This document shows positions 1-9,891 of a DNA stretch of 9,891 nucleotides, one piece after another. Source of the DNA: a virus (taxonomy: Duplodnaviria > Heunggongvirae > Uroviricota > Caudoviricetes); IMG/VR virus record IMGVR_UViG_2627853730_000001, positions 1-9,891 of that record. One strand, given 5' to 3'. The notes under the pieces are model-generated. The model was not told the origin of the DNA and did not search any database. It worked only from the letters and a program-made list of their open reading frames with translations. Both the position numbers and the translations under genes were made by a program. How positions within the stretch are numbered: position 1 is the first letter of the stretch; every line of letters begins with the position of its first letter.

Positions 1-1
1 G

Positions 2-235
2 CTGGAGATCACGCTCGGTCAGTTAACGGTTGAGTTCGAAACTGATGGGTGGTTTGCTCTGACGGGTGCCGGTTGCGAAGCGCGGCTGGATGATAATGCC
101 GTCTGGACCGGCTGGCGATTGCCGATGAAAGCAGGCCAGCGTTTAACGCTTAAACGCCCGCAGCACGGGATGCGCAGTTATCTGGTGGTCGCGGGTGGTA
201 TTGATGTTCCGCCGGTAATGGGGTCATGCATGTAA
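2..235 (+). pseudogene. pxpC: Interrupted host gene fragment, PxpC/YbgK-like (5-oxoprolinase subunit C / allophanate hydrolase subunit 2 family). It has no start in the window and its frame ends at a stop inside the prophage end.
   Basis: The + strand frame beginning at nt 2 is open to TAA 233-235 and translates LEITLGQLTVEFETDGWFALTGAGCEARLDDNAVWTGWRLPMKAGQRLTLKRPQHGMRSYLVVAGGIDVPPVMGSCM*. The ...SYLxVAGGIDV... region matches my recollection of the enterobacterial PxpC/YbgK mid-protein region, so the expected downstream part is missing. The following sequence is AT-rich with phage-end repeats. Identification is from memory, not a search. Confidence 0.5.
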
Positions 236-236
236 C

Positions 237-406
237 CAGGTGAATCATTTGATACCGACAAGGGTTTTAGTGAAAGGAGGTGAAATCACCTGTAAGATGC
301 TGAAATAAAACAGGTGATGTATACTTCGGACGGAAAACTCTTTTTGATACCGACTGCTCAACAAATAGTCAAAAGATCAAAAAACGGCGACACATTTGAT
401 ACTGCT
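237..406 (+). repeat. attL-like sub-terminal repeat array, presumed transposase end-binding sites (L1-L3 analogues).
   Basis: Three direct copies of the core TTTGATAC(C/T)G: CATTTGATACCGAC at 246-259, TTTTTGATACCGACTGCT at 343-360, CATTTGATACTGCT at 393-406. Three CAGGTGA motifs: 237-243, 311-317 and, inverted, inside the AGGTGA-AA-TCACCT inverted repeat at 278-291. The first copy resembles the MuA site consensus TGNTTCAYTNNAARYRCGAAAR only loosely. Confidence 0.6.
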
Positions 407-586
407 AATTTACCCTTAAAATCTTCTTCAAAACATCTTCAAACTGCCAAAATGCTCACATAATCGATCTAACTATAATCAGTATGATAATCATCATGAA
501 TTACTATTCAATAGCGTGATTATCTTGGGATGAGTCATATGATCTCTATATGTATTTACAGCACCACCTCATGATAGCGATGGCGC

Positions 587-1198
587 TTAACCAACAACAT
601 TTTTCTTTACTGTCACTGCCCCTGATTCCTGGGTGGCGTTATTGCTCGAGTTGTACTTCTCAATAACGCGCAAAATCTCTTTGTCTGTTTCTTCACTTCC
701 CGCCATTCCTATCTTTATTGCATTTTTTAGTACGGGACGTAATGGCAAGGCATCAATGATGCTTTCTACCGCATCCTGGCTGATTGTAGATGTATTCATT
801 GCTGCCAGCCTGACAAGGTTGTTAGTACCTTCTCGCCTGATGAATGTAAGGATTAATTGCTTCTCTTGGGGGCTTAGAGAGCTAAGCGCCTGATCAATAC
901 CCGAACCTGAATCGCAATTTTTTCCGATTTTTCCGCATTCATCTTCGTTCTTGCCTGTGGCCAACCAGTCGAGTGAACAATTACAGGCTTTAGCTATTAA
1001 GGCCAGTTTATCCAAAGGAGGGAAGTTTTTCCCCTTCCTGTAATTTCTTACTGTGGCTTCAGATAGTCCACAAAGGGTCGCCAGTTCGACGTTTGTCATG
1101 TTTCCCATAGCCATAGCTAAGCGTTCTGAAAATCGGTTTATTCCTTCCATATCAATAAACCGTTCCGCACTGGATACGGTTTTTTCTGCCTTATCCAT
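587..1198 (-). CDS. Prophage lysogeny repressor (functional analogue of Mu c) with an XRE/lambda-cI-type helix-turn-helix; 203 aa.
   Basis: Leftward ORF divergent from ner across the operator, in the position of Mu c. Residues ~34-80 (MTNVELATLCGLSEATVRNYRKGKNFPPLDKLALIAKACNCSLDWLATG) fit the HTH_XRE pattern. GGGGG Shine-Dalgarno lies upstream of ATG (complement of 1196-1198). I see no obvious S24 peptidase motif in the C-terminal part. Confidence 0.75.
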   Translation of the reverse strand: MDKAEKTVSSAERFIDMEGINRFSERLAMAMGNMTNVELATLCGLSEATVRNYRKGKNFPPLDKLALIAKACNCSLDWLATGKNEDECGKIGKNCDSGSGIDQALSSLSPQEKQLILTFIRREGTNNLVRLAAMNTSTISQDAVESIIDALPLRPVLKNAIKIGMAGSEETDKEILRVIEKYNSSNNATQESGAVTVKKNVVG

Positions 1199-1354
1199 AT
1201 AACCCCCTATAAAACAAAGAAATTATCGACATCGCATTTAATTTCGATATGCTCGCAAAAAACCGTTGATATCGAATTATTTTGCGATTATGATTTACCT
1301 AAATCGATAACCGGTTTTGATTATCGGTTCAGGTAAACATGAGAGGATCACACA
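1199..1354. promoter_or_regulatory. Operator and divergent promoter region between repressor and ner; by position also the likely transposition enhancer (internal activation sequence).
   Basis: A 156-bp AT-rich intergenic region holds at least six copies of a (T)ATCGA/TATCG core (tatcgac, atcgca, ttcgatat, gatatcgaa, atcgataa, ttatcgg), including the palindrome GATATC and the inverted pair ATCGATAACCGG/CCGGTTTTGATTATCGG. It sits about 1 kb from the left end, as Mu O1-O3 do. Confidence 0.6.
1266..1294 (+). promoter_or_regulatory. Candidate early promoter (Pe analogue) driving ner-A-B and downstream genes.
   Basis: -35 TTGATA (1266-1271), 17-bp spacer, -10 TATGAT (1289-1294); both hexamers are 5/6 matches to the sigma70 consensus. 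The -35 overlaps the GATATC operator repeat. ner ATG is at 1355 with GAGAGGA Shine-Dalgarno at 1341-1347. Confidence 0.5.
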
Positions 1355-1621
1355 ATGAGGGTATCCAGACAAGCATCGAATAATTTGTTTGTTCGAGAGG
1401 GGTGTGACTGGTCTGCTAAAGCGGTATATGCAGCCCTTGAAAACAAAGGCACAGACCTCCCTGAACTGGAAAGGGAGTTAGGATTAAAAAGCGGATCAAT
1501 GCGCAATGTGTTTTACCGCCAGTGCCGTAAATACGAAGCCGCCATCGCCGAAAAAATAGGGGTTGAACCTGCTGTAATCTGGCCCAGCAGATACCAGGTG
1601 GACGCCAGAGAAGTGGCTTGA
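1355..1621 (+). CDS. ner: Ner-like DNA-binding protein (Mu Ner / Nlp-Sfs7 family), negative regulator of early transcription; 88 aa.
   Basis: Translation contains DWSAKAVYAAL and the C-terminal AVIWPSRYQ, matching the Mu Ner / E. coli Nlp signature (DWHxADIIAGL ... EVIWPSRYQ). First rightward gene after the operator, with a good Shine-Dalgarno. Confidence 0.85.
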   Translation: MRVSRQASNNLFVREGCDWSAKAVYAALENKGTDLPELERELGLKSGSMRNVFYRQCRKYEAAIAEKIGVEPAVIWPSRYQVDAREVA

Positions 1622-1631
1622 TGGGGGATGT

Positions 1632-3722
1632 ATGTGGGTAACAGCAAAAGAATGTGTTGGTCTTCCTGATTTACCAATGATGGAACATAACATTCGCCAT
1701 CGACTCACAAAAGCAGCTGCGGGAAATGCAGCCATGTTACGCAAACGTAAGGGGACAAAAGCAATCGAATTTAATATCGATTGTTTGCCTTCTGGCGCGC
1801 AACAAGTATTGCGTGAACGTTATGCCCTTCAACTGATGACGCAAAAAGCTGATGAATCACCGGCTCCGGTGGTGACAAAGGCCAGACGCTCATCTGCCGT
1901 GGTTGATGCGGTGGAGGCATATCGCGGATCACCACAACTGATGCTCGAACGCCTCAATGCCCTGACTGAAAACCAGCGCCAGGTGGCTGATGCACGAATC
2001 GCGATCGTCAGCGAAGTTCTGAAAGTCGCGCAACAACCTGGTTTCAGCTGTGCGAAGGCTATCCGGTTTATCGTTGACAACCTGGCACGTTCGCAACTGG
2101 ACGAGCGCATTGTGGCAATGGTTGAGACGGCGAACGCCAAAAAGGGAAACAGCCGTGCGTTGAGTGAAATCACGCTGAAACGCTGGATTGCGGCCTTTAA
2201 CAAGGCACAGAACGCCGCTGAACGCCTGCTTTTACTGGCACCGGGTAAACGCCAGGAAATAAAAGCCGAAGATATTAACTGGCTGCCCGAATTTCTGGCG
2301 CAGTATCGCCAGTCAAACGGCCGACCAATGACCGAGGCTTACGAGGATTTTGTTGCTGAATGGCAGCACCGGCACGCTGATGAGCCTTATATGCTCGATA
2401 TCATGCCCTCTTATGACACCATTCGCCGCGCAATGAAGAAACTGCCGGAAGTGGTGAAACAAAAAGGCCGGGTAACTGGCAGTGAATACCGTCAGCTTGA
2501 GGGATTCACGCGCCGCGACTGGTCCAGAATGCCGGTGAATTATGTCTGGATTGGTGACGGTCACGGCATGAAGCTGAAATGCGCGCACCCGGTTCACGGG
2601 CGGCCATTCGCACCGGAAGTGACCTTTGTTATCGACGGTGGCACGCGCTTTGTGGTGGGCTGGAGCCTTGACCTGGCTGAAAATGTTTTCGCCGTAGCCG
2701 GTGCCATACAGCACGGTATTCGCCATCATGGCAAACCGTTTCTGTATTACTCGGATAATGGCTCCGGGGAAACCGCCGACGTCCTGGATAAGGAGATTGT
2801 GGGGATACTGCCACGACTGGGGATTAATCACCCGACAGGGATTGCCGGTAATCCGCAGGGACGGGGCATTATCGAACGGCTTAACCGCACATTACCGATG
2901 CGCATAGCCCGTAAATACCGCACCTATTTCGGGAAAGGAGCAGATCGCGAGACGTTACGTAAAACCAACCGCGATTTACGCTCGGCATTCAGTGCCCTGC
3001 AACAGGGCAAACGGCTGAACGCCCGGCAGCAGTCAGCGATGCGTGATTTACCGTCCTGGTCTGAACTGATTGATGCCATTCGTGACGGTGTTGAGTGGTA
3101 CAACAACCGGCCGCACGATGAATTACCCATGAAGCCGAACGGTAAACATTACAGCCCGGCGGAGTTCAGAAAAAAACGCCTGGCGGAAGAGGACACGGAA
3201 ATTGAATGGCTGTCCGATGTTGAACTGCGGGATATGTTCCGGCCGATGGTGGAGCGCCCTGTAAGACGCTGTGAAATACGCTGGCTGAATAATATTTACT
3301 ACGCGCCCGAGCTGCGTGACGAGCATGGCCGTAAGGTACTTATCAGCTATGACATTCATGATGCCGAACGAATTACCGTGCGCCGCCCGGATGGCAGCGT
3401 GATTTGCGAGGCGGTATGGGACGGCAATAAACGCGAAGCCTTCCCTGTCAGCGCGGAATACTACAAACAGCAGCAGCGCCTTAAAGGCATGCGTAAACGC
3501 GCAGAGGAAAAAATCCGTGATGCCGAGGATGAGGTTGTCAACGTGCTGGAGCACAAGCCGCAGGAGCCCTGGCTGGAAAACATATACCGCCCTGTGGGTA
3601 ATACGGTGACCGTTCAGCAACCGGTCGCTGACGATGAACCTGATGAAGAATACGAGCGTAATTTCCAGCGGGGATTGCAACTGCTCGAAGCGAAATTAAA
3701 AGAAAGTGATCCGCTGGCCTGA
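1632..3722 (+). CDS. A: Mu-type DDE transposase A (MuA-like), 696 aa.
   Basis: N-terminus MWVTAKECVGLPDLP resembles MuA MELWVSPKECANLPGLP (enhancer/operator-binding domain). DDE catalytic triad contexts are present: WIGDGHGMK, YYSDNGSGE, GRGIIERLNRT. Size and position (immediately after ner) fit. GGGGG Shine-Dalgarno lies 4 nt upstream of ATG 1632. Confidence 0.9.
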   Translation: MWVTAKECVGLPDLPMMEHNIRHRLTKAAAGNAAMLRKRKGTKAIEFNIDCLPSGAQQVLRERYALQLMTQKADESPAPVVTKARRSSAVVDAVEAYRGSPQLMLERLNALTENQRQVADARIAIVSEVLKVAQQPGFSCAKAIRFIVDNLARSQLDERIVAMVETANAKKGNSRALSEITLKRWIAAFNKAQNAAERLLLLAPGKRQEIKAEDINWLPEFLAQYRQSNGRPMTEAYEDFVAEWQHRHADEPYMLDIMPSYDTIRRAMKKLPEVVKQKGRVTGSEYRQLEGFTRRDWSRMPVNYVWIGDGHGMKLKCAHPVHGRPFAPEVTFVIDGGTRFVVGWSLDLAENVFAVAGAIQHGIRHHGKPFLYYSDNGSGETADVLDKEIVGILPRLGINHPTGIAGNPQGRGIIERLNRTLPMRIARKYRTYFGKGADRETLRKTNRDLRSAFSALQQGKRLNARQQSAMRDLPSWSELIDAIRDGVEWYNNRPHDELPMKPNGKHYSPAEFRKKRLAEEDTEIEWLSDVELRDMFRPMVERPVRRCEIRWLNNIYYAPELRDEHGRKVLISYDIHDAERITVRRPDGSVICEAVWDGNKREAFPVSAEYYKQQQRLKGMRKRAEEKIRDAEDEVVNVLEHKPQEPWLENIYRPVGNTVTVQQPVADDEPDEEYERNFQRGLQLLEAKLKESDPLA

Positions 3723-3804
3723 AATAAAAAAATAACCCGAGGGGTGACTCAGGTTATTTGAGGTTTCAGTCTCGGAGAATGCTGTCTCAAGCGAGGTGAA
3801 TAAT

Positions 3805-4737
3805 ATGACCGATATTAACGATGTAATCAAGACCATTGATGAACTTATTGATGGCGGCGTACTGACGCAGTATGCCATCGCCAGAGAGGCGGGAATTTCC
3901 GACGGCACATTATCGGCTTTCCGTAAGGGAAAATATAAAGGCGATAACGCTGCTGTGGCTGCTTCCCTGCGCTCCTGGTATGAGAACTGGAATAAACAAA
4001 GCGCACTGCCGGAACCGCCGCAGTTTGTGGAAACTCAGACAGTCCAGGAGCTGCGCGCACTGTTTCAGGCGGTTCGCCTGATGGGCTGTATTAACGTTAT
4101 TGTGGGCGTACCGGGTGTGGGTAAAACGGCCACTGCCCGTAATTACTGCCAGGAGCAACCAAACACCTGGATGATCACCCTGTCACCCGCGCACTCCAGC
4201 GTCACGGAGTGTCTGCTGGAGCTGGCCGATGCGCTGGGGATTGATTACACCCGCGCGAACAAAGGGGCATTATCCCGCGCCATCCGCCGTCGCCTGACGG
4301 GAACGCGTGGACTGGTGATTGTGGATGAGGCGGATCATCTTGGTATTGACGGTCTGGAGCAACTCCGGGCAATTCAGGACGCCACGGGGATCGGGATGGT
4401 GCTTATTGGTAACCCGCGCGGATTGTTTAAAGGTGGACGCCGCGCCTTTGATGATTTATCGCGCCTGTTCAGCCGTCTTGCCCGTACAAAACAACTTCGC
4501 AAGGCCAAAAAGGCGGATGTGCTGGCCATTGCCAGGGCATGGGGTATCAGTGGTGAGGCCGAGCTGGCCGTCATGCAGGCTATCGCTGAAAAGCCGGGAG
4601 CATTACGTGTTCTGACACATACGCTTAACCAGGCGTGGCTCACCGCCAGCGGTGAAGGCGCGGCGCTGACAGAAAAACATATTAATGCGGCCTTTAAAGA
4701 GGTTTATACCAACCCTGAATTACTCTCACAGGTGTGA
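3805..4737 (+). CDS. B: Mu B-like AAA+ ATPase, target-DNA activator of transposition; about 310 aa. Alternative GTG start at 3796.
   Basis: Walker A GVPGVGKT and Walker B LVIVDEADHL are present. N-terminal region ...GISDGTLSAFRKGKYKGDNAAV... parallels MuB ...FINDKYNGDNERV.... Length is close to MuB (312 aa). ATG 3805 is preceded by GAGGTG (3793-3798) at 6-nt spacing. Confidence 0.85.
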   Translation: MTDINDVIKTIDELIDGGVLTQYAIAREAGISDGTLSAFRKGKYKGDNAAVAASLRSWYENWNKQSALPEPPQFVETQTVQELRALFQAVRLMGCINVIVGVPGVGKTATARNYCQEQPNTWMITLSPAHSSVTECLLELADALGIDYTRANKGALSRAIRRRLTGTRGLVIVDEADHLGIDGLEQLRAIQDATGIGMVLIGNPRGLFKGGRRAFDDLSRLFSRLARTKQLRKAKKADVLAIARAWGISGEAELAVMQAIAEKPGALRVLTHTLNQAWLTASGEGAALTEKHINAAFKEVYTNPELLSQV

Positions 4738-4739
4738 TT

Positions 4740-4961
4740 ATGGCGGTATTTAATATTCCTGATATTTACGGACGCTTTTACCTGGTTAATTTCGATAACG
4801 TGAAGGTGATTTCACTGGCCGAAAATAAAGCATGTGGCGATTTACTTTTTGAATTTAATGACCGCACACGAATGGTGATATCTGCCGGACTTGATCGCGA
4901 AGGTGCGACAGAAGTTTACAGCGGAATATGCCGTTCTGTTGGTGCGAAACAAGTCAGCTAA
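4740..4961 (+). CDS. Small early protein, 73 aa, in the position occupied by kil in Mu (positional analogy only).
   Basis: ORF starts 3 nt after the B stop with AGGTG 6 nt upstream of ATG 4740 (the six-frame track gives a GTG at 4734). Size matches my recollection of Mu Kil (~74 aa), but I recognise no sequence similarity. Confidence 0.5.
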   Translation: MAVFNIPDIYGRFYLVNFDNVKVISLAENKACGDLLFEFNDRTRMVISAGLDREGATEVYSGICRSVGAKQVS

Positions 4962-5228
4962 ATGAGGTGTTATATGAATATGCAATCCTGCGGTAACAAA
5001 ATGAATTTATTCGACTCCCTGAACAGCGCGCGCCGTCTGACCGAACTTGCCGGTGCGGTACTGGAACGCAGTAAGCGCTATCCGCAACGTTTTGCACTGA
5101 AAACCACGCCGCCGGTAGGCAACGTGCAGGGAACCGGTGAAATTGAAATCACCATACAGACCAACGGCCTGCGCCGCCGTGTGAAGGCCACCCGCATCAG
5201 CGGCTGCACGGTTTACTGGGAGGTGTGA
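4962..5228 (+). CDS. Hypothetical small early protein, 84-88 aa; start ambiguous between ATG 4962, 4974 and 4980.
   Basis: Open frame abuts the stop of the previous gene (TAA 4959-4961, ATG 4962). GAGGTG at 4965-4970 would best serve ATG 4980. Tightly packed in a co-directional operon. Confidence 0.5.
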   Translation: MRCYMNMQSCGNKMNLFDSLNSARRLTELAGAVLERSKRYPQRFALKTTPPVGNVQGTGEIEITIQTNGLRRRVKATRISGCTVYWEV

Positions 5229-5229
5229 G

Positions 5230-5511
5230 GTGAAAAAAAATCTCATTGCATGGGCGTGGTCGAGTGGTCTTATTGAGTTTGGTTACGTCCTGCCGGAAGG
5301 TGCATTGCCGATAGTTGCCGGAAAGCCCGCCACGGTACGGCATGTGATTGATGTTGTGGCGCGTCATGGACGCGATGAACAGGAACAGCTACTGGTTCCT
5401 GGAATACCGGAAGCGGTGACGGAAGAAGAAGCCTTTAATGCCATGGTTCAGTTCTGCCGTGAGGTCAGACGCCGGGTCAGTTATCCAAACAGAACGAGGG
5501 CCAGAGGATGA
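5230..5511 (+). CDS. Hypothetical early protein, 93 aa.
   Basis: GTG 5230 is preceded by GGGAGG (5218-5223) at 6-nt spacing and lies 1 nt after the upstream stop. The 3' end overlaps the next start in an ATGA junction (5508-5511). Confidence 0.55.
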   Translation: MKKNLIAWAWSSGLIEFGYVLPEGALPIVAGKPATVRHVIDVVARHGRDEQEQLLVPGIPEAVTEEEAFNAMVQFCREVRRRVSYPNRTRARG

Positions 5512-5780
5512 GTAAAGTCGTGCGCATTATTTTCGAATACAAGGAGGACGTTATCCGTAAAAACGCTGATGGAACAGTGCACATGGGGGTAAGTCTGGAT
5601 ATACGTTCAACCGGAATAAAGCAGAAAAATGATAGCCCCGCCATGATTTTTGGGGTGGTTATGCTGGCAGAAAGCAGAAACTTCGCAGAGCTTGTGGCAA
5701 TGAAAGCCAGTGCATTCATGAAAGACAGGGGCATGGCTTCCGGGGTTATTAACGGTAATGAATTTAATCAGCAGGGGTAA
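5508..5780 (+). CDS. Hypothetical early protein, 90 aa; paralogue 1 of a tandem pair.
   Basis: ATGA overlap with the upstream gene. N-terminus MSKVVRIIFEY is shared with the next gene, and the first ~35 nt are near-identical to the start of 5786-6078. Confidence 0.6.
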   Translation: MSKVVRIIFEYKEDVIRKNADGTVHMGVSLDIRSTGIKQKNDSPAMIFGVVMLAESRNFAELVAMKASAFMKDRGMASGVINGNEFNQQG

Positions 5781-5785
5781 TTCCA

Positions 5786-6078
5786 TGAGCAAAGTACGCG
5801 TTATTTTTGAATTTGAGCATGTTTCGCATGACGAAAAACCGGCAGGCAATGACAGTGTTGAAGTGCATGAAAAGATTGGTGTGGATGTAAAAACAGAACG
5901 TGATACGGATAACAGGCCGACGTCACTCTGTGACGTTTATGCAAGTATTCTCCAGTATCACAGTCCTGAAATTATTCAGTTTCTCTCAGCGGAATTTCAG
6001 GCATCTGTACAGGCTTTTGGGGCGGATGCCATCATTAAACGCCACCGCGTGCATAAAGCATCAGGCACACTGCAATAA
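5786..6078 (+). CDS. Hypothetical early protein, 97 aa; paralogue 2 of a tandem pair.
   Basis: I prefer ATG 5786 (CAGGGG Shine-Dalgarno at 5773-5777) over the track's 5758 start because it gives N-terminus MSKVRVIFEF, parallel to the upstream paralogue. A C-terminal segment (QFLSAEFQASVQAFG) weakly resembles ELVAMKASAFMKDRG in paralogue 1. Confidence 0.6.
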
Positions 6079-6089
6079 GGAAAAACAAA

Positions 6090-6620
6090 ATGGCTAAACG
6101 CGTTACAAAATTAAAGGCCGCAGCCGAGGCAGCACCGCAGACCCGTGAAGAGGTCAGCCGCGATATCCGACGCTTTGGGGATATGCAGCGTGAGGCACTA
6201 CGCCTGGAAACGGCGATGAATGACGAAGTGGCAGAAATCACCGCCCGTTATACGCCGCAGATTGAAAACCTTAAAAAAGAAATCAAAGTGCTTTTTAAGG
6301 GGATTCATGACTGGTGTAAAACCAACCGCAATGAGCTGACGAACGGCGGCGAAACCAAAACAGCCAATCTGACCACCGGAACGGTGTCATGGCGGCTGGG
6401 AACGCCATCATGCAGCGTCAGCCGTGATGTGGAAGGCGTGATTGAAATGCTGCGCCGTATGGGCCTTGAGCGCTTCATCCGCACGAAAGAGGAAGTGAAT
6501 AAGCAAGCTGTCCTGGCGGAGCCAGATGCGGTGAAGGGCATTGCCGGTATAAAGGTGAATAAAGGCGCTGAAAGTTTTTATGTCGAGCCTTTTGAACAGG
6601 ACGCCGGACTGAATAAATAA
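6090..6620 (+). CDS. gam: Gam-like host-nuclease inhibitor (Mu Gam family, Ku-like DNA-end-binding protein), 176 aa.
   Basis: Translation matches my recollection of Mu Gam along its length: GDMQREALRLETAMNDEVAEIT, ELTNGGETKTANLTTGTVSWR, ERFIRTKEEVNKQAVLAEP. Size and position in the early region fit. Confidence 0.8.
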   Translation: MAKRVTKLKAAAEAAPQTREEVSRDIRRFGDMQREALRLETAMNDEVAEITARYTPQIENLKKEIKVLFKGIHDWCKTNRNELTNGGETKTANLTTGTVSWRLGTPSCSVSRDVEGVIEMLRRMGLERFIRTKEEVNKQAVLAEPDAVKGIAGIKVNKGAESFYVEPFEQDAGLNK

Positions 6621-6717
6621 CACCGCATTAAATCTTTAAATATCACATCGTGTTAATTATGGCGCTCGCGTCAGGGGACTGCCTGCGCCTGTAAACTGAA
6701 AATAAGGAACAGGAAAT

Positions 6718-7260
6718 ATGGCATATTTTTATTTCAAATTAGACATAGTGTACACAAATAAATATTTAACCGAATATCAGCGGGATGTTTTACCGCTACG
6801 CAACAGTATTCTTCGGGCATTACTGAAAAATACAGGCGCTGCCGGATTGCGCTTAAAGCCGTTCGCCATGGACGTAATCAGTGAGTTTTATTTTTCTGGT
6901 TCTCTGCCTGCGGGCTGGCGTAAGCGCGATGATGTGGCTTTTATCGGGGACGGACCGTGCTTTATTGCCAGACCTGATGAGTCATGCCCTGAAGGTCCGG
7001 CGATTGCCGCAATGATTGAAACCGCTGAACGTGAGTTAAGAAAGCGTCCTGATTTCCTTGTCTGGCTCTGTGAAAAGCTGGGGGTAATGAGAATCCCCTC
7101 CATGTTTAACACGGACTCCTGGTGGACCCCGTCGCTCTCCCGTGATGCCCTGTGCGTGGTGTTTAAAGTAGGCGCTTATGGCAGGGAAATAAAAGGGGGT
7201 ATTCCTGAAGAATGCCAGGAAATTAAACATTCTGAATATGTGGCGCTGACGGAGGAATAA
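6718..7260 (+). CDS. Hypothetical protein, 180 aa, no family recognised; first gene after the only sizeable intergenic gap of the early region.
   Basis: Strong AGGAACAGGA Shine-Dalgarno before ATG 6718. The 5' ~80 nt are AT-rich. The frame is open for 180 codons with no competing ORF. Confidence 0.65.
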   Translation: MAYFYFKLDIVYTNKYLTEYQRDVLPLRNSILRALLKNTGAAGLRLKPFAMDVISEFYFSGSLPAGWRKRDDVAFIGDGPCFIARPDESCPEGPAIAAMIETAERELRKRPDFLVWLCEKLGVMRIPSMFNTDSWWTPSLSRDALCVVFKVGAYGREIKGGIPEECQEIKHSEYVALTEE

Positions 7261-7263
7261 TTC

Positions 7264-7797
7264 ATGATTGATGCAAAAGTGCTTGAAGGGGTTAAAAGCT
7301 GGCTGCGTTTTTCTGGCCGTCTGACCAGTCGTTCTCTGGCAGAAAAAATGAATATGCCGCTATCCTCCATGGTTTATTTTCTGCGTGATGCGGTCGATGC
7401 CGGGGTGCTGACGGACCGTAACGGTTTTTATGATATTCCGCGTCCCCGCCCGGTGCAGGCGGTTCGTCGCAAATGCAGCCAGGAAGGTGCGGCTGATGAT
7501 GTTCAGTGGTGCAGCTTCAGAAAATCCCTGCCGTGGATTGAGGGGCATGATATTCCGTCGATGGCGTGGGAATTTGCTCAGGGAGTACTGACCTGCGAAA
7601 CCGTTTATGTGGTGGCTGAAGTTGATGAGCAGGCCATGAAAGAAGGCGTGCCCCAGTTTGTGATGGCGTATATCGACATTCGCCTGGGCGTCATTATCTG
7701 CGGCTTAAGCGGCTGGAACATCACCGGGCGCGTTCTGCGTTACCTGATTATTGACCGGACAGCGGCATCGGCAGGGATATCTGCGGAGGTGGCGTAA
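7264..7797 (+). CDS. Hypothetical protein, 177 aa, with a possible N-terminal winged-helix/HTH-like segment.
   Basis: GGAGGA Shine-Dalgarno at 7251-7256, 7 nt before ATG 7264. N-terminal RLTSRSLAEKMNMPLSSMVYFLRDAVDAGVL looks like a DNA-binding helix-turn-helix/wing, but this is a by-eye judgement. The stop overlaps the next start (TAATG at 7795-7799). Confidence 0.6.
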   Translation: MIDAKVLEGVKSWLRFSGRLTSRSLAEKMNMPLSSMVYFLRDAVDAGVLTDRNGFYDIPRPRPVQAVRRKCSQEGAADDVQWCSFRKSLPWIEGHDIPSMAWEFAQGVLTCETVYVVAEVDEQAMKEGVPQFVMAYIDIRLGVIICGLSGWNITGRVLRYLIIDRTAASAGISAEVA

Positions 7798-8312
7798 TGT
7801 TCTTTAAAACATCAAACCCTTCCGCGCTGGCTGCGTGGCAAAAATACCAGCAGGACTGCCAGAAAGTTAAGGATGAGGCAAAACGCCTTGAGGCCGTGCT
7901 GAATGTTGCGTGCCGGTCGGTATTTGTATCCGGTATCAGTGGATTTTGCTTTAAGGGACTGCGTTTTACGGAGGACAAATATCCTTTTCATCGCGACTTA
8001 TGGCGAAAACCGACTGCGTCGAATGGCTGGAGCTGCACACCGCGCACATCACGTATCCCTAAAACCCTGCGTGTTGCCTCTGATGAACTGAACAGTCTGT
8101 GGCGTGAATATTCGCCCGTCACGTATGCCAGAACCGATGCGCTGTTGTTCTGGCTGGGTATTGATTTCTCGGCAATCCTGTTTGGCCCTGTGAAGTGGTT
8201 CTGCGTTGACGATGTGATTTACCTTCAGTGCGGCGTAAAACCCGCAAAACAGAAAATGACCGAAATACTGTCTGATGAGTTTTATGCTGCTGAAAAGCGA
8301 GTCAGGGGGTGA
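7797..8312 (+). CDS. Hypothetical protein, 171 aa, no family recognised.
   Basis: Translationally coupled to the upstream gene (TAATG overlap) with GGAGGTGG upstream. Long open frame in the operon direction. Confidence 0.6.
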   Translation: MFFKTSNPSALAAWQKYQQDCQKVKDEAKRLEAVLNVACRSVFVSGISGFCFKGLRFTEDKYPFHRDLWRKPTASNGWSCTPRTSRIPKTLRVASDELNSLWREYSPVTYARTDALLFWLGIDFSAILFGPVKWFCVDDVIYLQCGVKPAKQKMTEILSDEFYAAEKRVRG

Positions 8313-8315
8313 TGC

Positions 8316-8867
8316 ATGATGAAATTACAACCCATGGGACTAAAAGGTCGCGCCCCCGCTCATGTCCGTCCGTGGACACCTGAAGAAGATGCGCTGCTGA
8401 TTGCGCTTTATTCATCCACCCCGGTTAAGGATATTGCTGCCAGAATAAAAAGAACTGTCTGGGCTGTATATAACCGGACTGGTGTATTGCGCAGTTCATA
8501 CCCGGAGTTACTGAAATATAAACACCCAAGATTTACACCTGATGAAGATAAGTTTATTCGAAAAAATGCCAGAACAATGACCTGCCAGCAAATGGGAGAA
8601 TATCTCGGACGTAATAAAGATTCTGTCAGATGTCGGGCAGGAATGATTGGTGCTGGATTAACAAAGTGCGGAGAGTTACGCCCCGGCACGCGCATATCTG
8701 ATGATGATGTACGTCTTATACGTGCGCTGCGTGATTCCGATTACCCACGCCGTCTGTCATTCCGGGAAATTGGCGAAAAGTTTGGAATATCTGAACATTC
8801 TGCTCACGCAGTTTATTACCGTCGCCGGACTGCCGAGGACGCTGTATTACGGGAGTTAACGCCATGA
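8316..8867 (+). CDS. Putative DNA-binding protein with three internal Myb/SANT-like or HTH-like repeats, 183 aa.
   Basis: Three ~45-aa segments begin WTPEEDALLIALY..., FTPDEDKFIRKNA..., ISDDDVRLIRALR...; the third ends in an HTH-like RRLSFREIGEKFGISEHSAHAVYYRR. AGGGGGTG Shine-Dalgarno precedes ATG 8316. ATGA overlap with the next gene at 8864-8867. Confidence 0.6.
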   Translation: MMKLQPMGLKGRAPAHVRPWTPEEDALLIALYSSTPVKDIAARIKRTVWAVYNRTGVLRSSYPELLKYKHPRFTPDEDKFIRKNARTMTCQQMGEYLGRNKDSVRCRAGMIGAGLTKCGELRPGTRISDDDVRLIRALRDSDYPRRLSFREIGEKFGISEHSAHAVYYRRRTAEDAVLRELTP

Positions 8868-9196
8868 TAACGACCTTATTTGTTGAATCAGATGAACCTC
8901 TTGTGTGTGCCGCCGGAATGCCGCTCTGTGGCGGAACGCTGACCGGCGTTTATTTCGGGGATTTGCGCGGTTATCCCTGGCATTCACTGGATGACGCATT
9001 TCCGCCTGATATGGAGGCTGTCGTGCTGATTGTTCAGTATGGTGACCAACAGGAACTGCGCATCGGCCATATGGGGTATGAAGGCTTTTTTATTGATGAA
9101 GAAACCGGAGCCTGCCTTGAAGATGAGGACGGACAGGTGACGCACTGGTGCCATCTTTCGGCCTTGCCGGAATTACAGGGGATACATAATGGATGA
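8864..9196 (+). CDS. DUF551-like phage protein, 110 aa.
   Basis: The C-terminal two thirds (PWHSLDDAFPPDMEAVVLIVQYG...GYEGFFIDEETG...VTHWCHLSALPE) fit the DUF551 pattern as I recall it (W-S-D-LP ... VL ... THW-LP-PE). GGGAG Shine-Dalgarno and ATGA coupling at the start. Confidence 0.55.
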   Translation: MITTLFVESDEPLVCAAGMPLCGGTLTGVYFGDLRGYPWHSLDDAFPPDMEAVVLIVQYGDQQELRIGHMGYEGFFIDEETGACLEDEDGQVTHWCHLSALPELQGIHNG

Positions 9197-9332
9197 GCAA
9201 ATTGTTGAATGTCCCACCTGTGGAAATGAGGACCCGGAGTATCTGAAAGAGTGCCCACATTGTGGTGAGATAAAATGTAACCACTGCGATATGGGCGACG
9301 ACACTGCATGTATAAATTGTGAGGATGAATAA
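9189..9332 (+). CDS. Small zinc-ribbon protein, 47 aa, with four CxxC motifs; not in the six-frame track because it is under 60 aa.
   Basis: ATG 9189 overlaps the upstream stop (ATGGATGA) with AGGGG 8 nt upstream. Translation MDEQIVECPTCGNEDPEYLKECPHCGEIKCNHCDMGDDTACINCEDE contains CPTC, CPHC, CNHC, CINC. It fills the gap between flanking genes, and its stop (9330-9332) is followed 1 nt later by the next start. Confidence 0.55.
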   Translation: MDEQIVECPTCGNEDPEYLKECPHCGEIKCNHCDMGDDTACINCEDE

Positions 9333-9333
9333 T

Positions 9334-9621
9334 ATGGAAAAAGAAATCAAATTTGCGCCTAAATCTATCGACGAAGAACTGGCTAAAATCGGCATGCTTG
9401 AACGTATGCGGGACATTATCGAATATGCGATAAAAGAAAATCTTGCAGCCAGAGAAGCCCTTTTGATAATGGAGCGGGAGATTAACCTGATTAAGGATGC
9501 TGTATCTCTGGATAATAAAATAGCCCGCGAGGAATACGTTCGCCGCAGGCTCGGTGTTGATGGTTCAGCAATTCTTACATCTGAACATTATGCAAAAATT
9601 TTTAATCTTTTTCAGCGGTAA
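9334..9621 (+). CDS. Hypothetical charged, probably helical protein, 95 aa, in an AT-rich segment.
   Basis: ATG 9334 is preceded by GAGGA (9321-9325) at 8-nt spacing; the track's longer ORF starts at GTG 9319. Sequence is rich in E/K/R/I/L. Nucleotide composition is visibly more AT-rich than the upstream operon. Confidence 0.5.
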   Translation: MEKEIKFAPKSIDEELAKIGMLERMRDIIEYAIKENLAAREALLIMEREINLIKDAVSLDNKIAREEYVRRRLGVDGSAILTSEHYAKIFNLFQR

Positions 9622-9841
9622 TCCCCATACAGGCCCGGAGATTGTCGAAATGCCAGTCGGTATTAATATATGAGCCATCCTGGATATCTTCTGTATTTTC
9701 CGGGGTAGAGTTTTTTTGAGCGAGATTGATAATATGTATTGCCTCCTCACGGGAAATCAGCCCCTTATCGAACAGGGTTACCATAAGATTTCCAGCCATT
9801 GTGAATGCGGCAACATCAAGTGCATTTTTTATATCTGACAT
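9602..9841 (-). CDS. Hypothetical protein, 79 aa, on the minus strand, convergent with and overlapping the 3' end of the 9334-9621 gene by 20 nt.
   Basis: Minus-strand ATG (complement of 9839-9841) is preceded by AAAGGAAAAA as a ribosome-binding site. It is the only substantial minus-strand ORF in the rightward early region that is not a shadow of a stronger plus-strand gene. AT-rich composition. Confidence 0.45.
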   Translation of the reverse strand: MSDIKNALDVAAFTMAGNLMVTLFDKGLISREEAIHIINLAQKNSTPENTEDIQDGSYINTDWHFDNLRACMGITAEKD

Positions 9842-9854
9842 AGATTTTTCCTTT

Positions 9855-9889
9855 TATGTTAATTGACATGGCGGTGCGGTAACACCGCC
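9855..9889. promoter_or_regulatory. Palindromic elements upstream of the minus-strand gene: near-palindrome ATGTTAATTGACAT and hairpin GGCGGTG-CGGTAA-CACCGCC; candidate operator or promoter region.
   Basis: Perfect 7-bp inverted repeat with a 6-nt loop at 9870-9889 and a near-palindrome at 9855-9868. They lie immediately 5' of the minus-strand start. There is no U-tract on either strand, so not a typical intrinsic terminator. The window ends at 9891, so context is incomplete. Confidence 0.3.
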
Positions 9890-9891
9890 CA

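Follow-up and report, generated by a model that had tools for sequence, protein, structure and literature searches.

A variable block of early genes behind a conserved spacer in a Mu-like prophage: predicted relatives of Mu gp11, Mu gp12 and P22 EaC

Organization of the locus

We analysed a stretch of 9,891 nucleotides (hereafter the window; positions 1 to 9,891 of IMG/VR record IMGVR_UViG_2627853730_000001) that represents the left end of a Mu-like prophage and carries the repressor, ner, A, B, five small open reading frames (ORFs), and gam. Our subject is the trio of consecutive genes of similar size that follows gam (ORF1, ORF2, and ORF3), together with the non-coding spacer that separates gam from ORF1. 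An earlier reading of the bare sequence (the original prediction) had placed the end of gam, a 97-bp gap, and three ORFs of 180, 177, and 171 amino acids (aa) here, and all of these are real and have exactly the coordinates it gave. It was also right in regarding the trio as uncharacterized early genes inside the semi-essential region. The features are:

6090..6620, + strand: gam, encoding a Mu Gam-like DNA-end-binding protein (Pfam Phage_Mu_Gam, 6.9e-40); upstream anchor of the block
6621..6717, + strand: 97-bp non-coding spacer between gam and ORF1, with an AT-rich tract, a conserved hairpin, and the ribosome-binding site of ORF1
6652..6691, + strand: conserved core of the spacer
6718..7260, + strand: ORF1, 180 aa, predicted divergent member of the DUF5420/P22-EaC superfamily; a variable 'slot' gene
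7264..7797, + strand: ORF2, 177 aa, predicted orthologue of Mu gp11 with a putative N-terminal winged helix and a Gp11_C domain
7797..8312, + strand: ORF3, 171 aa, predicted orthologue of Mu gp12 (Pfam Phage_Mu_Gp12) and probable distant paralogue of ORF1
1632-3722: transposase A
3796-4737: B

The Gam protein of the window is 55% identical to Mu Gam. Downstream of it the genes are tightly packed, with 3 nt between ORF1 and ORF2, a 1-nt overlap of stop and start codons (TAATG) between ORF2 and ORF3, and 3 nt between ORF3 and the next gene; GGAGG motifs precede ORF2 and ORF3, and AAGGA/AGGA precedes ORF1. These tight junctions agree with the translational coupling that had been proposed for the trio. 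The 97-bp gap behind gam is the largest within the early operon. It had been described as the only real intergenic gap of the early region, which fails at the A-B junction, where a second sizeable gap of 73 bp (71 bp by the RefSeq annotation) is found. Its description as AT-rich applies to a tract at about 6628-6660, which is followed by a GC-rich hairpin (6661-6689); the GC content of the whole gap is 43%.

ORF2 and ORF3 correspond to Mu gp11 and gp12

ORF2 is 63% identical to Mu gp11 (Mup11, formerly E10-E12) over its full length (177 aa), and its residues 90-167 match the Pfam family PF25754 Gp11_C with 133.8 bits (cutoff 27; E 2.7e-39). ORF3 shares 54% identity with Mu gp12 (Mup12, formerly E13) over 169 of 171 aa (E 1e-68). 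The family scan, whose models did not include PF26885 (Phage_Mu_Gp12), returned no Pfam match for ORF3; in precomputed annotation, proteins that are 94% identical to ORF3 carry PF26885. The two proteins fall into phrog_1949 (ORF2) and phrog_2314 (ORF3). As judged from sequence, ORF2 is orthologous to Mu gp11 and ORF3 to Mu gp12, and the earlier statement that the trio matches nothing in Mu is therefore wrong for two of the three genes, both of which align with their Mu counterparts at full length.

The gene neighbourhood is similar in both genomes. Mu gp11 (176 aa) and ORF2 (177 aa) both lie downstream of gam and are both followed by gp12, whose start overlaps the gp11 stop codon at the same junction. 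They differ in that Mu gp11 is the first gene after the post-gam spacer, whereas in the window ORF1 lies in between, and in that Mu gp12 is followed by gp13, whereas ORF3 is followed by two extra genes (8316-8867 and 8864-9196) before a gp13-like ORF. The gp11 family is confined to Mu-like phages of E. coli, Shigella, Salmonella, Citrobacter, and Yersinia, and a search of genome contigs with the gp11 profile recovered a single locus, in Citrobacter braakii.

The N-terminus of ORF2 had been described as helix-turn-helix (HTH)- or winged-helix-like. Residues 13-50 gave sub-threshold Pfam matches to HTH_24, HTH_10, HTH_20, HTH_CodY, WH4_Lhr, and PCI (E 0.01-0.3), which is in line with that description, and none above threshold; hhalign aligned ORF2 with E. 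coli AsnC in the correct register with an E value of 0.009 and a probability of only 4%. Single-sequence and profile searches of the PDB found no match for ORF2/gp11.

The Shigella phage SfMu (NC_027382) carries an unannotated gp12 homologue at 7442-7967 that is 95% identical to Mu gp12 and has an apparent frameshift near codon 20; its RefSeq record shows a 514-bp unannotated gap at this position. The split gene is either a pseudogene or the product of a sequencing error.

ORF1 and the DUF5420/P22-EaC superfamily

Mu and D108 lack a counterpart of ORF1, which belongs to phrog_2260 (4e-72) and shares 41% identity over 180 aa with the SfMu protein named gp11 ('DUF5420 family protein'). The gene of the SfMu protein likewise fills the slot that separates the spacer from the gp11 orthologue. 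ORF1 differs from the SfMu protein, and from DUF5420 proteins, in belonging to a small divergent branch. The DUF5420 model (PF17457, gathering score 26 bits) did not match ORF1 at E <= 1, and SfMu gp11 itself was without a DUF5420 match in the Pfam scan; the same model scored 51.9 bits with the alternative allele of the slot (locus L005), 48.8 bits with a Citrobacter protein, and only 15 bits with P0014. An exhaustive HMMER search of 1.84 billion proteins with the ORF1-family profile recovered only 27 cluster representatives, nearly all of them stand-alone proteins of 180-210 aa. In a broad alignment of the ORF1 family, which pairs ORF1 over its entire length with 29 relatives, 21 of the 30 sequences match DUF5420, and the N-terminal Y-FK and C-terminal EIKxSEFxALTEE motifs are shared. 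In hhalign, 186 columns of the family profile aligned with P22 EaC at a probability of 99.7% (E 2.9e-25). These profile comparisons place ORF1 in a divergent branch of the DUF5420/P22-EaC superfamily. The original prediction had found no match of the trio to any other family; in addition to the placement of ORF1, all three proteins are members of named Pfam or PHROG families.

ORF1 and EaC are both encoded by non-structural genes of temperate phages, ORF1 in a Mu-like early operon and eaC beside xis. Unlike ORF1, EaC stems from a lambdoid phage, has 211 aa, and is without a gp11-like neighbour and without the spacer element. P22 EaC (NC_002371, 22746-23381) has no Pfam match despite its clear homology to the DUF5420-type profile, and the Pfam boundary of DUF5420 therefore seems too narrow.

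The ORF1 and ORF3 families are probably also related to each other. hhalign aligned the two family profiles over 152-159 collinear columns with a probability of 71-90% (E 2e-6 to 4e-5), pairing the N-terminal motifs YFK and FFK and the C-terminal motifs EIKxSEFxAL and EILSDEFYAA, while controls with the gp11 family, with reversed profiles, and with 50 column-shuffled profiles all scored <=20. A first comparison with shallow alignments had been negative (probability 0.09), and the relation was seen only with the broader ORF1-family alignment. AlphaFold2 (AF2) models of ORF1 (mean predicted local distance difference test score, pLDDT, 88; predicted template modelling score, pTM, 0.80) and ORF3 (pLDDT 86, pTM 0.76; the other four models only 64-68) present the same order of elements: a strand, a long helix, a beta-hairpin, a variable insert, two helices, a beta-hairpin, a strand, and a C-terminal helix. 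We consider it likely that ORF1 and ORF3 are distant paralogues, a relation that is new here, and that both probably have one alpha/beta fold.

A conserved element in the spacer

In an alignment with Mu and SfMu, the spacer shows 81% column identity, compared with about 68% for the flanking coding DNA. Its core reads TTAATTATGGCG(C/T)..GCGTCAGGGGAC..(G/A)CGCCTG, with TTAATTATGGCGC..GCGTCAGGGGAC..GCGCCTG as the copy in the window, and is nearly invariant in Mu (NC_000929, about 6359-6400), D108, SfMu, Yersinia Mu-like phages, and Citrobacter and Salmonella prophages. The core includes the imperfect hairpin (6661-6689), whose outer and inner stems are GGCGC/GCGCC and GTC/GAC; on its 3' side the hairpin is followed by TGTAAAC or TGAAAC and by no U-tract. 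RNAalifold predicted eight pairs, one of them with a compensatory change: across all loci, pair 5 of the outer stem is C:G in 113 and T:A in 9 cases, with no mismatches. Neither a sigma-70-like promoter (-35/-10) nor an intrinsic terminator (stem plus T-run on the + strand) was found within 6621-6717, and the best scores against the Rfam 15 covariance models were 12-17 bits, far below the gathering scores.

The element is present, unannotated, in 253 of 5,426 E. coli genomes, at about one copy per Mu-like prophage. Its upstream neighbour is gam or, in the Citrobacter and Salmonella prophages, a DUF3164 gene, and the sequence directly 3' of the terminal ...CGCCT motif of the core varies with the gene that follows. 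Because of this dependence on the following gene, the element marks a boundary of variable DNA; in the Mu-like phages of Enterobacterales, the variable accessory region is headed by this conserved and unannotated spacer element.

The DUF3164 protein (212 aa, 6e-79) is encoded in the position of gam in Mu-like prophages of Salmonella, Citrobacter, and Klebsiella (L050, 3697-4335; L055, 2690-3328; L056, 2697-3335; Klebsiella locus L058, 2426-3064), and the spacer element downstream of it was established for L050, L055, and L056. That its gene occupies exactly the gam position suggests that the DUF3164 protein is a functional analogue or replacement of Gam.

Gene content behind the element

To describe the region behind the element, we scanned IMG/VR for the element, which yielded 96 stretches, and searched with profile hidden Markov models the 65 loci that extend at least 1.9 kb downstream. 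Among these loci, which were not de-replicated, 22 have the trio (one of them with two EaC-like genes), 13 have gp11-gp12, ten have gp12 alone, ten have gp11 alone, six have none of the three, three have an EaC-like gene plus gp11, and one has a frameshifted gp11. The gene order is constant, and the block always stands behind gam or DUF3164. The locus with a doubled EaC-like gene is an IMG/VR Mu-like contig (L094), in which two such genes in a row precede gp11-gp12. That gp11 is invariably accompanied by one or more EaC-like partners was ruled out by the ten loci with gp11 alone.

The arrangement also varies among named phages and host genomes. Mu and D108 have gp11-gp12, the Yersinia phages Tongde and YpM_3 have DUF5420-gp11 and no gp12, and SfMu has DUF5420-gp11 followed by the unannotated, apparently frameshifted gp12. 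Prophages of Salmonella and Citrobacter carry the full trio behind DUF3164, and 214 of 5,426 complete E. coli genomes contain the trio. Members of the ORF1 superfamily are also found as single genes, with neither gp11 nor the element, in phages of Klebsiella (a Mu-like phage and a Lastavirus), Vibrio, Acinetobacter, and Pseudomonas and in P22. Co-occurrence of the trio as a cassette in other Mu-like prophages, which had been put forward as a check, is thus observed, and its standing as a fixed module is weakened by the element-bearing loci with gp11 alone, gp12 alone, or none of the three. Because the families occur in varied combinations and superfamily members also singly, the trio is no obligate unit but the most frequent arrangement of a variable accessory block.

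Close relatives of the window, with gp11 at least 83% identical, always have gp11 and gp12 side by side, and the variation among them lies in the slot between spacer and gp11. This slot holds ORF1, a 24%-identical allele of 196 aa that is a true DUF5420 protein (the 51.9-bit match mentioned above), or only an ORF of 14 codons, such that ORF1 is present, replaced, or absent among prophages that are otherwise at least 87% identical. The 14-codon ORF (MKYVYIVINNVVGK) lies between the element and gp11 and has its own ribosome-binding site (L019, 3953-3997; the other empty-slot loci are L018, L021, L025, L026, L028, L030, L032-L034, and L041). Its first residues resemble the N-termini of DUF5420 proteins (MKYRYFK), for which reason it may be what a deletion left behind, keeping gp11 translationally coupled.

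Selection on the three genes

Ratios of non-synonymous to synonymous substitution rates (dN/dS), computed against four relatives, were 0.05-0.13 for gam, 0.12-0.27 for ORF2, and 0.13-0.24 for ORF3. ORF2 and ORF3 are under purifying selection. ORF1 had a dN/dS of 0.40-0.81 and a lower dS than the other genes; it seems to evolve faster or under relaxed constraint and to have spread recently. The low dN/dS of ORF2 and ORF3, the conservation across genera, and the confident AF2 models of ORF1 and ORF3 argue that all three are real genes.

Searches for function

All three proteins belong to PHROG families without assigned function. None of them matched NCBIfam, the Pfam families GemA, Mor, Kil, or Gam, the PDB in single-sequence searches, or any defence or candidate defence model of PADLOC-DB at E <= 0.1, and no fold match that would give a function was found. 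Literature searches on gp11, gp12, and DUF5420 returned nothing on function, and EaC was encountered only as the name of an unstudied gene; one paper reports that deletion of P22 eaC-eaE gave no viable phage, a result that is not interpretable for eaC alone. The original prediction had proposed an undescribed anti-defence or host-takeover module and had named homology to Mu early proteins of known role as evidence against it. Homology to Mu early proteins exists for ORF2 and ORF3, a known role of these proteins does not, and the proposed function is without direct support from the PADLOC, NCBIfam, PDB, fold, and literature searches. The trio consists of already catalogued Mu-like early genes, represented in Pfam and PHROGs and annotated as 'hypothetical' in hundreds of genomes, and is not an undescribed module.

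Proposed role of the block and alternatives

We favour, with somewhat better than even confidence, the reading that the locus, which forms the proximal part of the variable semi-essential early region and is made up of Mu gp11, Mu gp12, and an EaC-like gene, encodes separate accessory proteins. The three genes would be transcribed as part of the long early transcript, as the gap has no promoter or terminator consensus, and would be translationally coupled. The spacer element would most likely function in RNA, as a site for processing or stability, and/or provide a conserved boundary for recombinational exchange of the accessory genes downstream. Since each gene is individually dispensable and every combination occurs, gp11, gp12, and ORF1 would be separate non-essential accessory proteins and not one machine. 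Genes of these families tend to neighbour genes with a part in DNA-end binding, recombination, or replication: gam or DUF3164 in Mu-like phages, genes for a Cas4-like exonuclease, a helicase, and an RNaseH-like protein in Vibrio phage H188, and xis in the PL operon of P22. With low confidence, we propose that the trio modulates DNA transactions early in lytic growth, gp11 as a winged-helix DNA binder and the EaC-like proteins as nucleic-acid-associated factors. Phage_Mu_Gp12, DUF5420, and P22 EaC are probably one superfamily of early phage proteins, and one experiment could inform all of them.

This reading bears on a classical function of Mu. The classical gene order, c ner A B cim kil gam sot arm lig, places arm in the interval from gam to lig/gemA, which we take to be dominated by gp11 and gp12. 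The arm phenotype was described in the early 1980s and, to our knowledge, has never been assigned to an ORF. Arm is a non-essential, replication-amplifying function located between B and C (PMC10052514), and it is listed with kil, gam, sot, cim, and gemA/B among the Mu early functions (PMC4553209). Read as modulators of DNA transactions, that is, gp11 as a DNA binder and EaC-like proteins as nucleic-acid-associated factors, gp11 and gp12 would be the prime and concrete ORF candidates for arm, an assignment we make with low confidence.

Several observations weigh against the favoured reading or parts of it. The link to arm, which is known only as a phenotype, is a positional inference from the classical map, where other small ORFs (gp13-gp15) share the interval. 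A winged helix in gp11 is plausible but unproven, its matches being sub-threshold. The relation of gp12 to EaC is only moderately supported (probability 71-90%), the gp12 profile gave no significant alignment with the single P22 EaC sequence, and the likeness of the ORF1 and ORF3 models is one of secondary-structure order and not of superposition. As to the hairpin, its folding energy is unexceptional (z = -0.7), and the compensatory change at pair 5 probably goes back to a single evolutionary event.

The main alternative, that at least one of the three proteins, most of all the variable ORF1, inhibits a host defence system or nuclease and thereby complements the anti-RecBCD activity of Gam, appears rather unlikely to us, and a role of the arm type in Mu DNA replication is no less plausible. 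An anti-defence role would suit a block that adjoins gam and whose genes, sited in a hot spot beyond a conserved boundary, come and go independently of one another; it would also suit the presence, absence, and allele swap of ORF1 among prophages that are otherwise at least 87% identical and the scatter of superfamily singletons through the early genes of phages that are unrelated to each other and include virulent and temperate ones. However, the PHROG and PADLOC scans returned no anti-defence annotation and no PADLOC model match, and ORF2 and ORF3 show ordinary purifying selection and wide conservation in the Mu-like phages of Enterobacterales. The raised dN/dS of ORF1 (0.4-0.8), with a low dS that is consistent with recent exchange, fits an arms-race gene, but relaxed constraint would account for it just as well if ORF1 is partly redundant with its probable paralogue gp12.

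Three further explanations were considered. It would be improbable, in our view, that gp11, as a winged helix-turn-helix protein, forms a complex with the EaC-like partners that flank it and that this complex binds the element, either as a DNA operator or as an RNA hairpin, to autoregulate or process the distal early transcript. We are similarly doubtful that hairpin and genes form a functional unit in which the EaC superfamily, with its weakly RNA recognition motif (RRM)-like alpha/beta architecture, would be a widespread and so far overlooked class of early phage proteins and acts on nucleic acid together with winged-helix gp11, giving Arm activity or neutralizing a host nuclease or defence alongside Gam. 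Least credible is a separate transcription unit, for which the gap would contain its own, possibly activator-dependent promoter or a terminator or attenuator that sets the trio apart from A, B, and gam. The size of the gap, its conservation above that of the flanking coding DNA, and the AT-rich tract upstream of the hairpin are what one would expect in this case, but neither a sigma-70-like site nor a stem followed by a T-run lies on the + strand of the gap, the hairpin leads into GAAA/GTAAA and not into a U-tract, and the early region of Mu is described as one operon transcribed from Pe, which also counts against a separate unit.

Other genes of the early region

With a match to phrog_1518 'host nuclease inhibitor' (2e-41), a 93-aa ORF upstream of gam (5230-5511) is possibly a second candidate for an anti-nuclease function in this operon. 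GemA and Mor are located further downstream in the source prophage. The gene next to ORF3 (8316-8867) encodes a 183-aa protein of phrog_323 'transcriptional regulator, D5-like' with weak Myb/SANT and HTH matches, for which PGAP names vary between 'AsnC family', 'DNA-binding', and 'SANT/Myb-like'; it was compared with GemA and is unrelated. This gene is missing from Mu and exists as two alleles of about 70% identity among prophages that are otherwise at least 87% identical.

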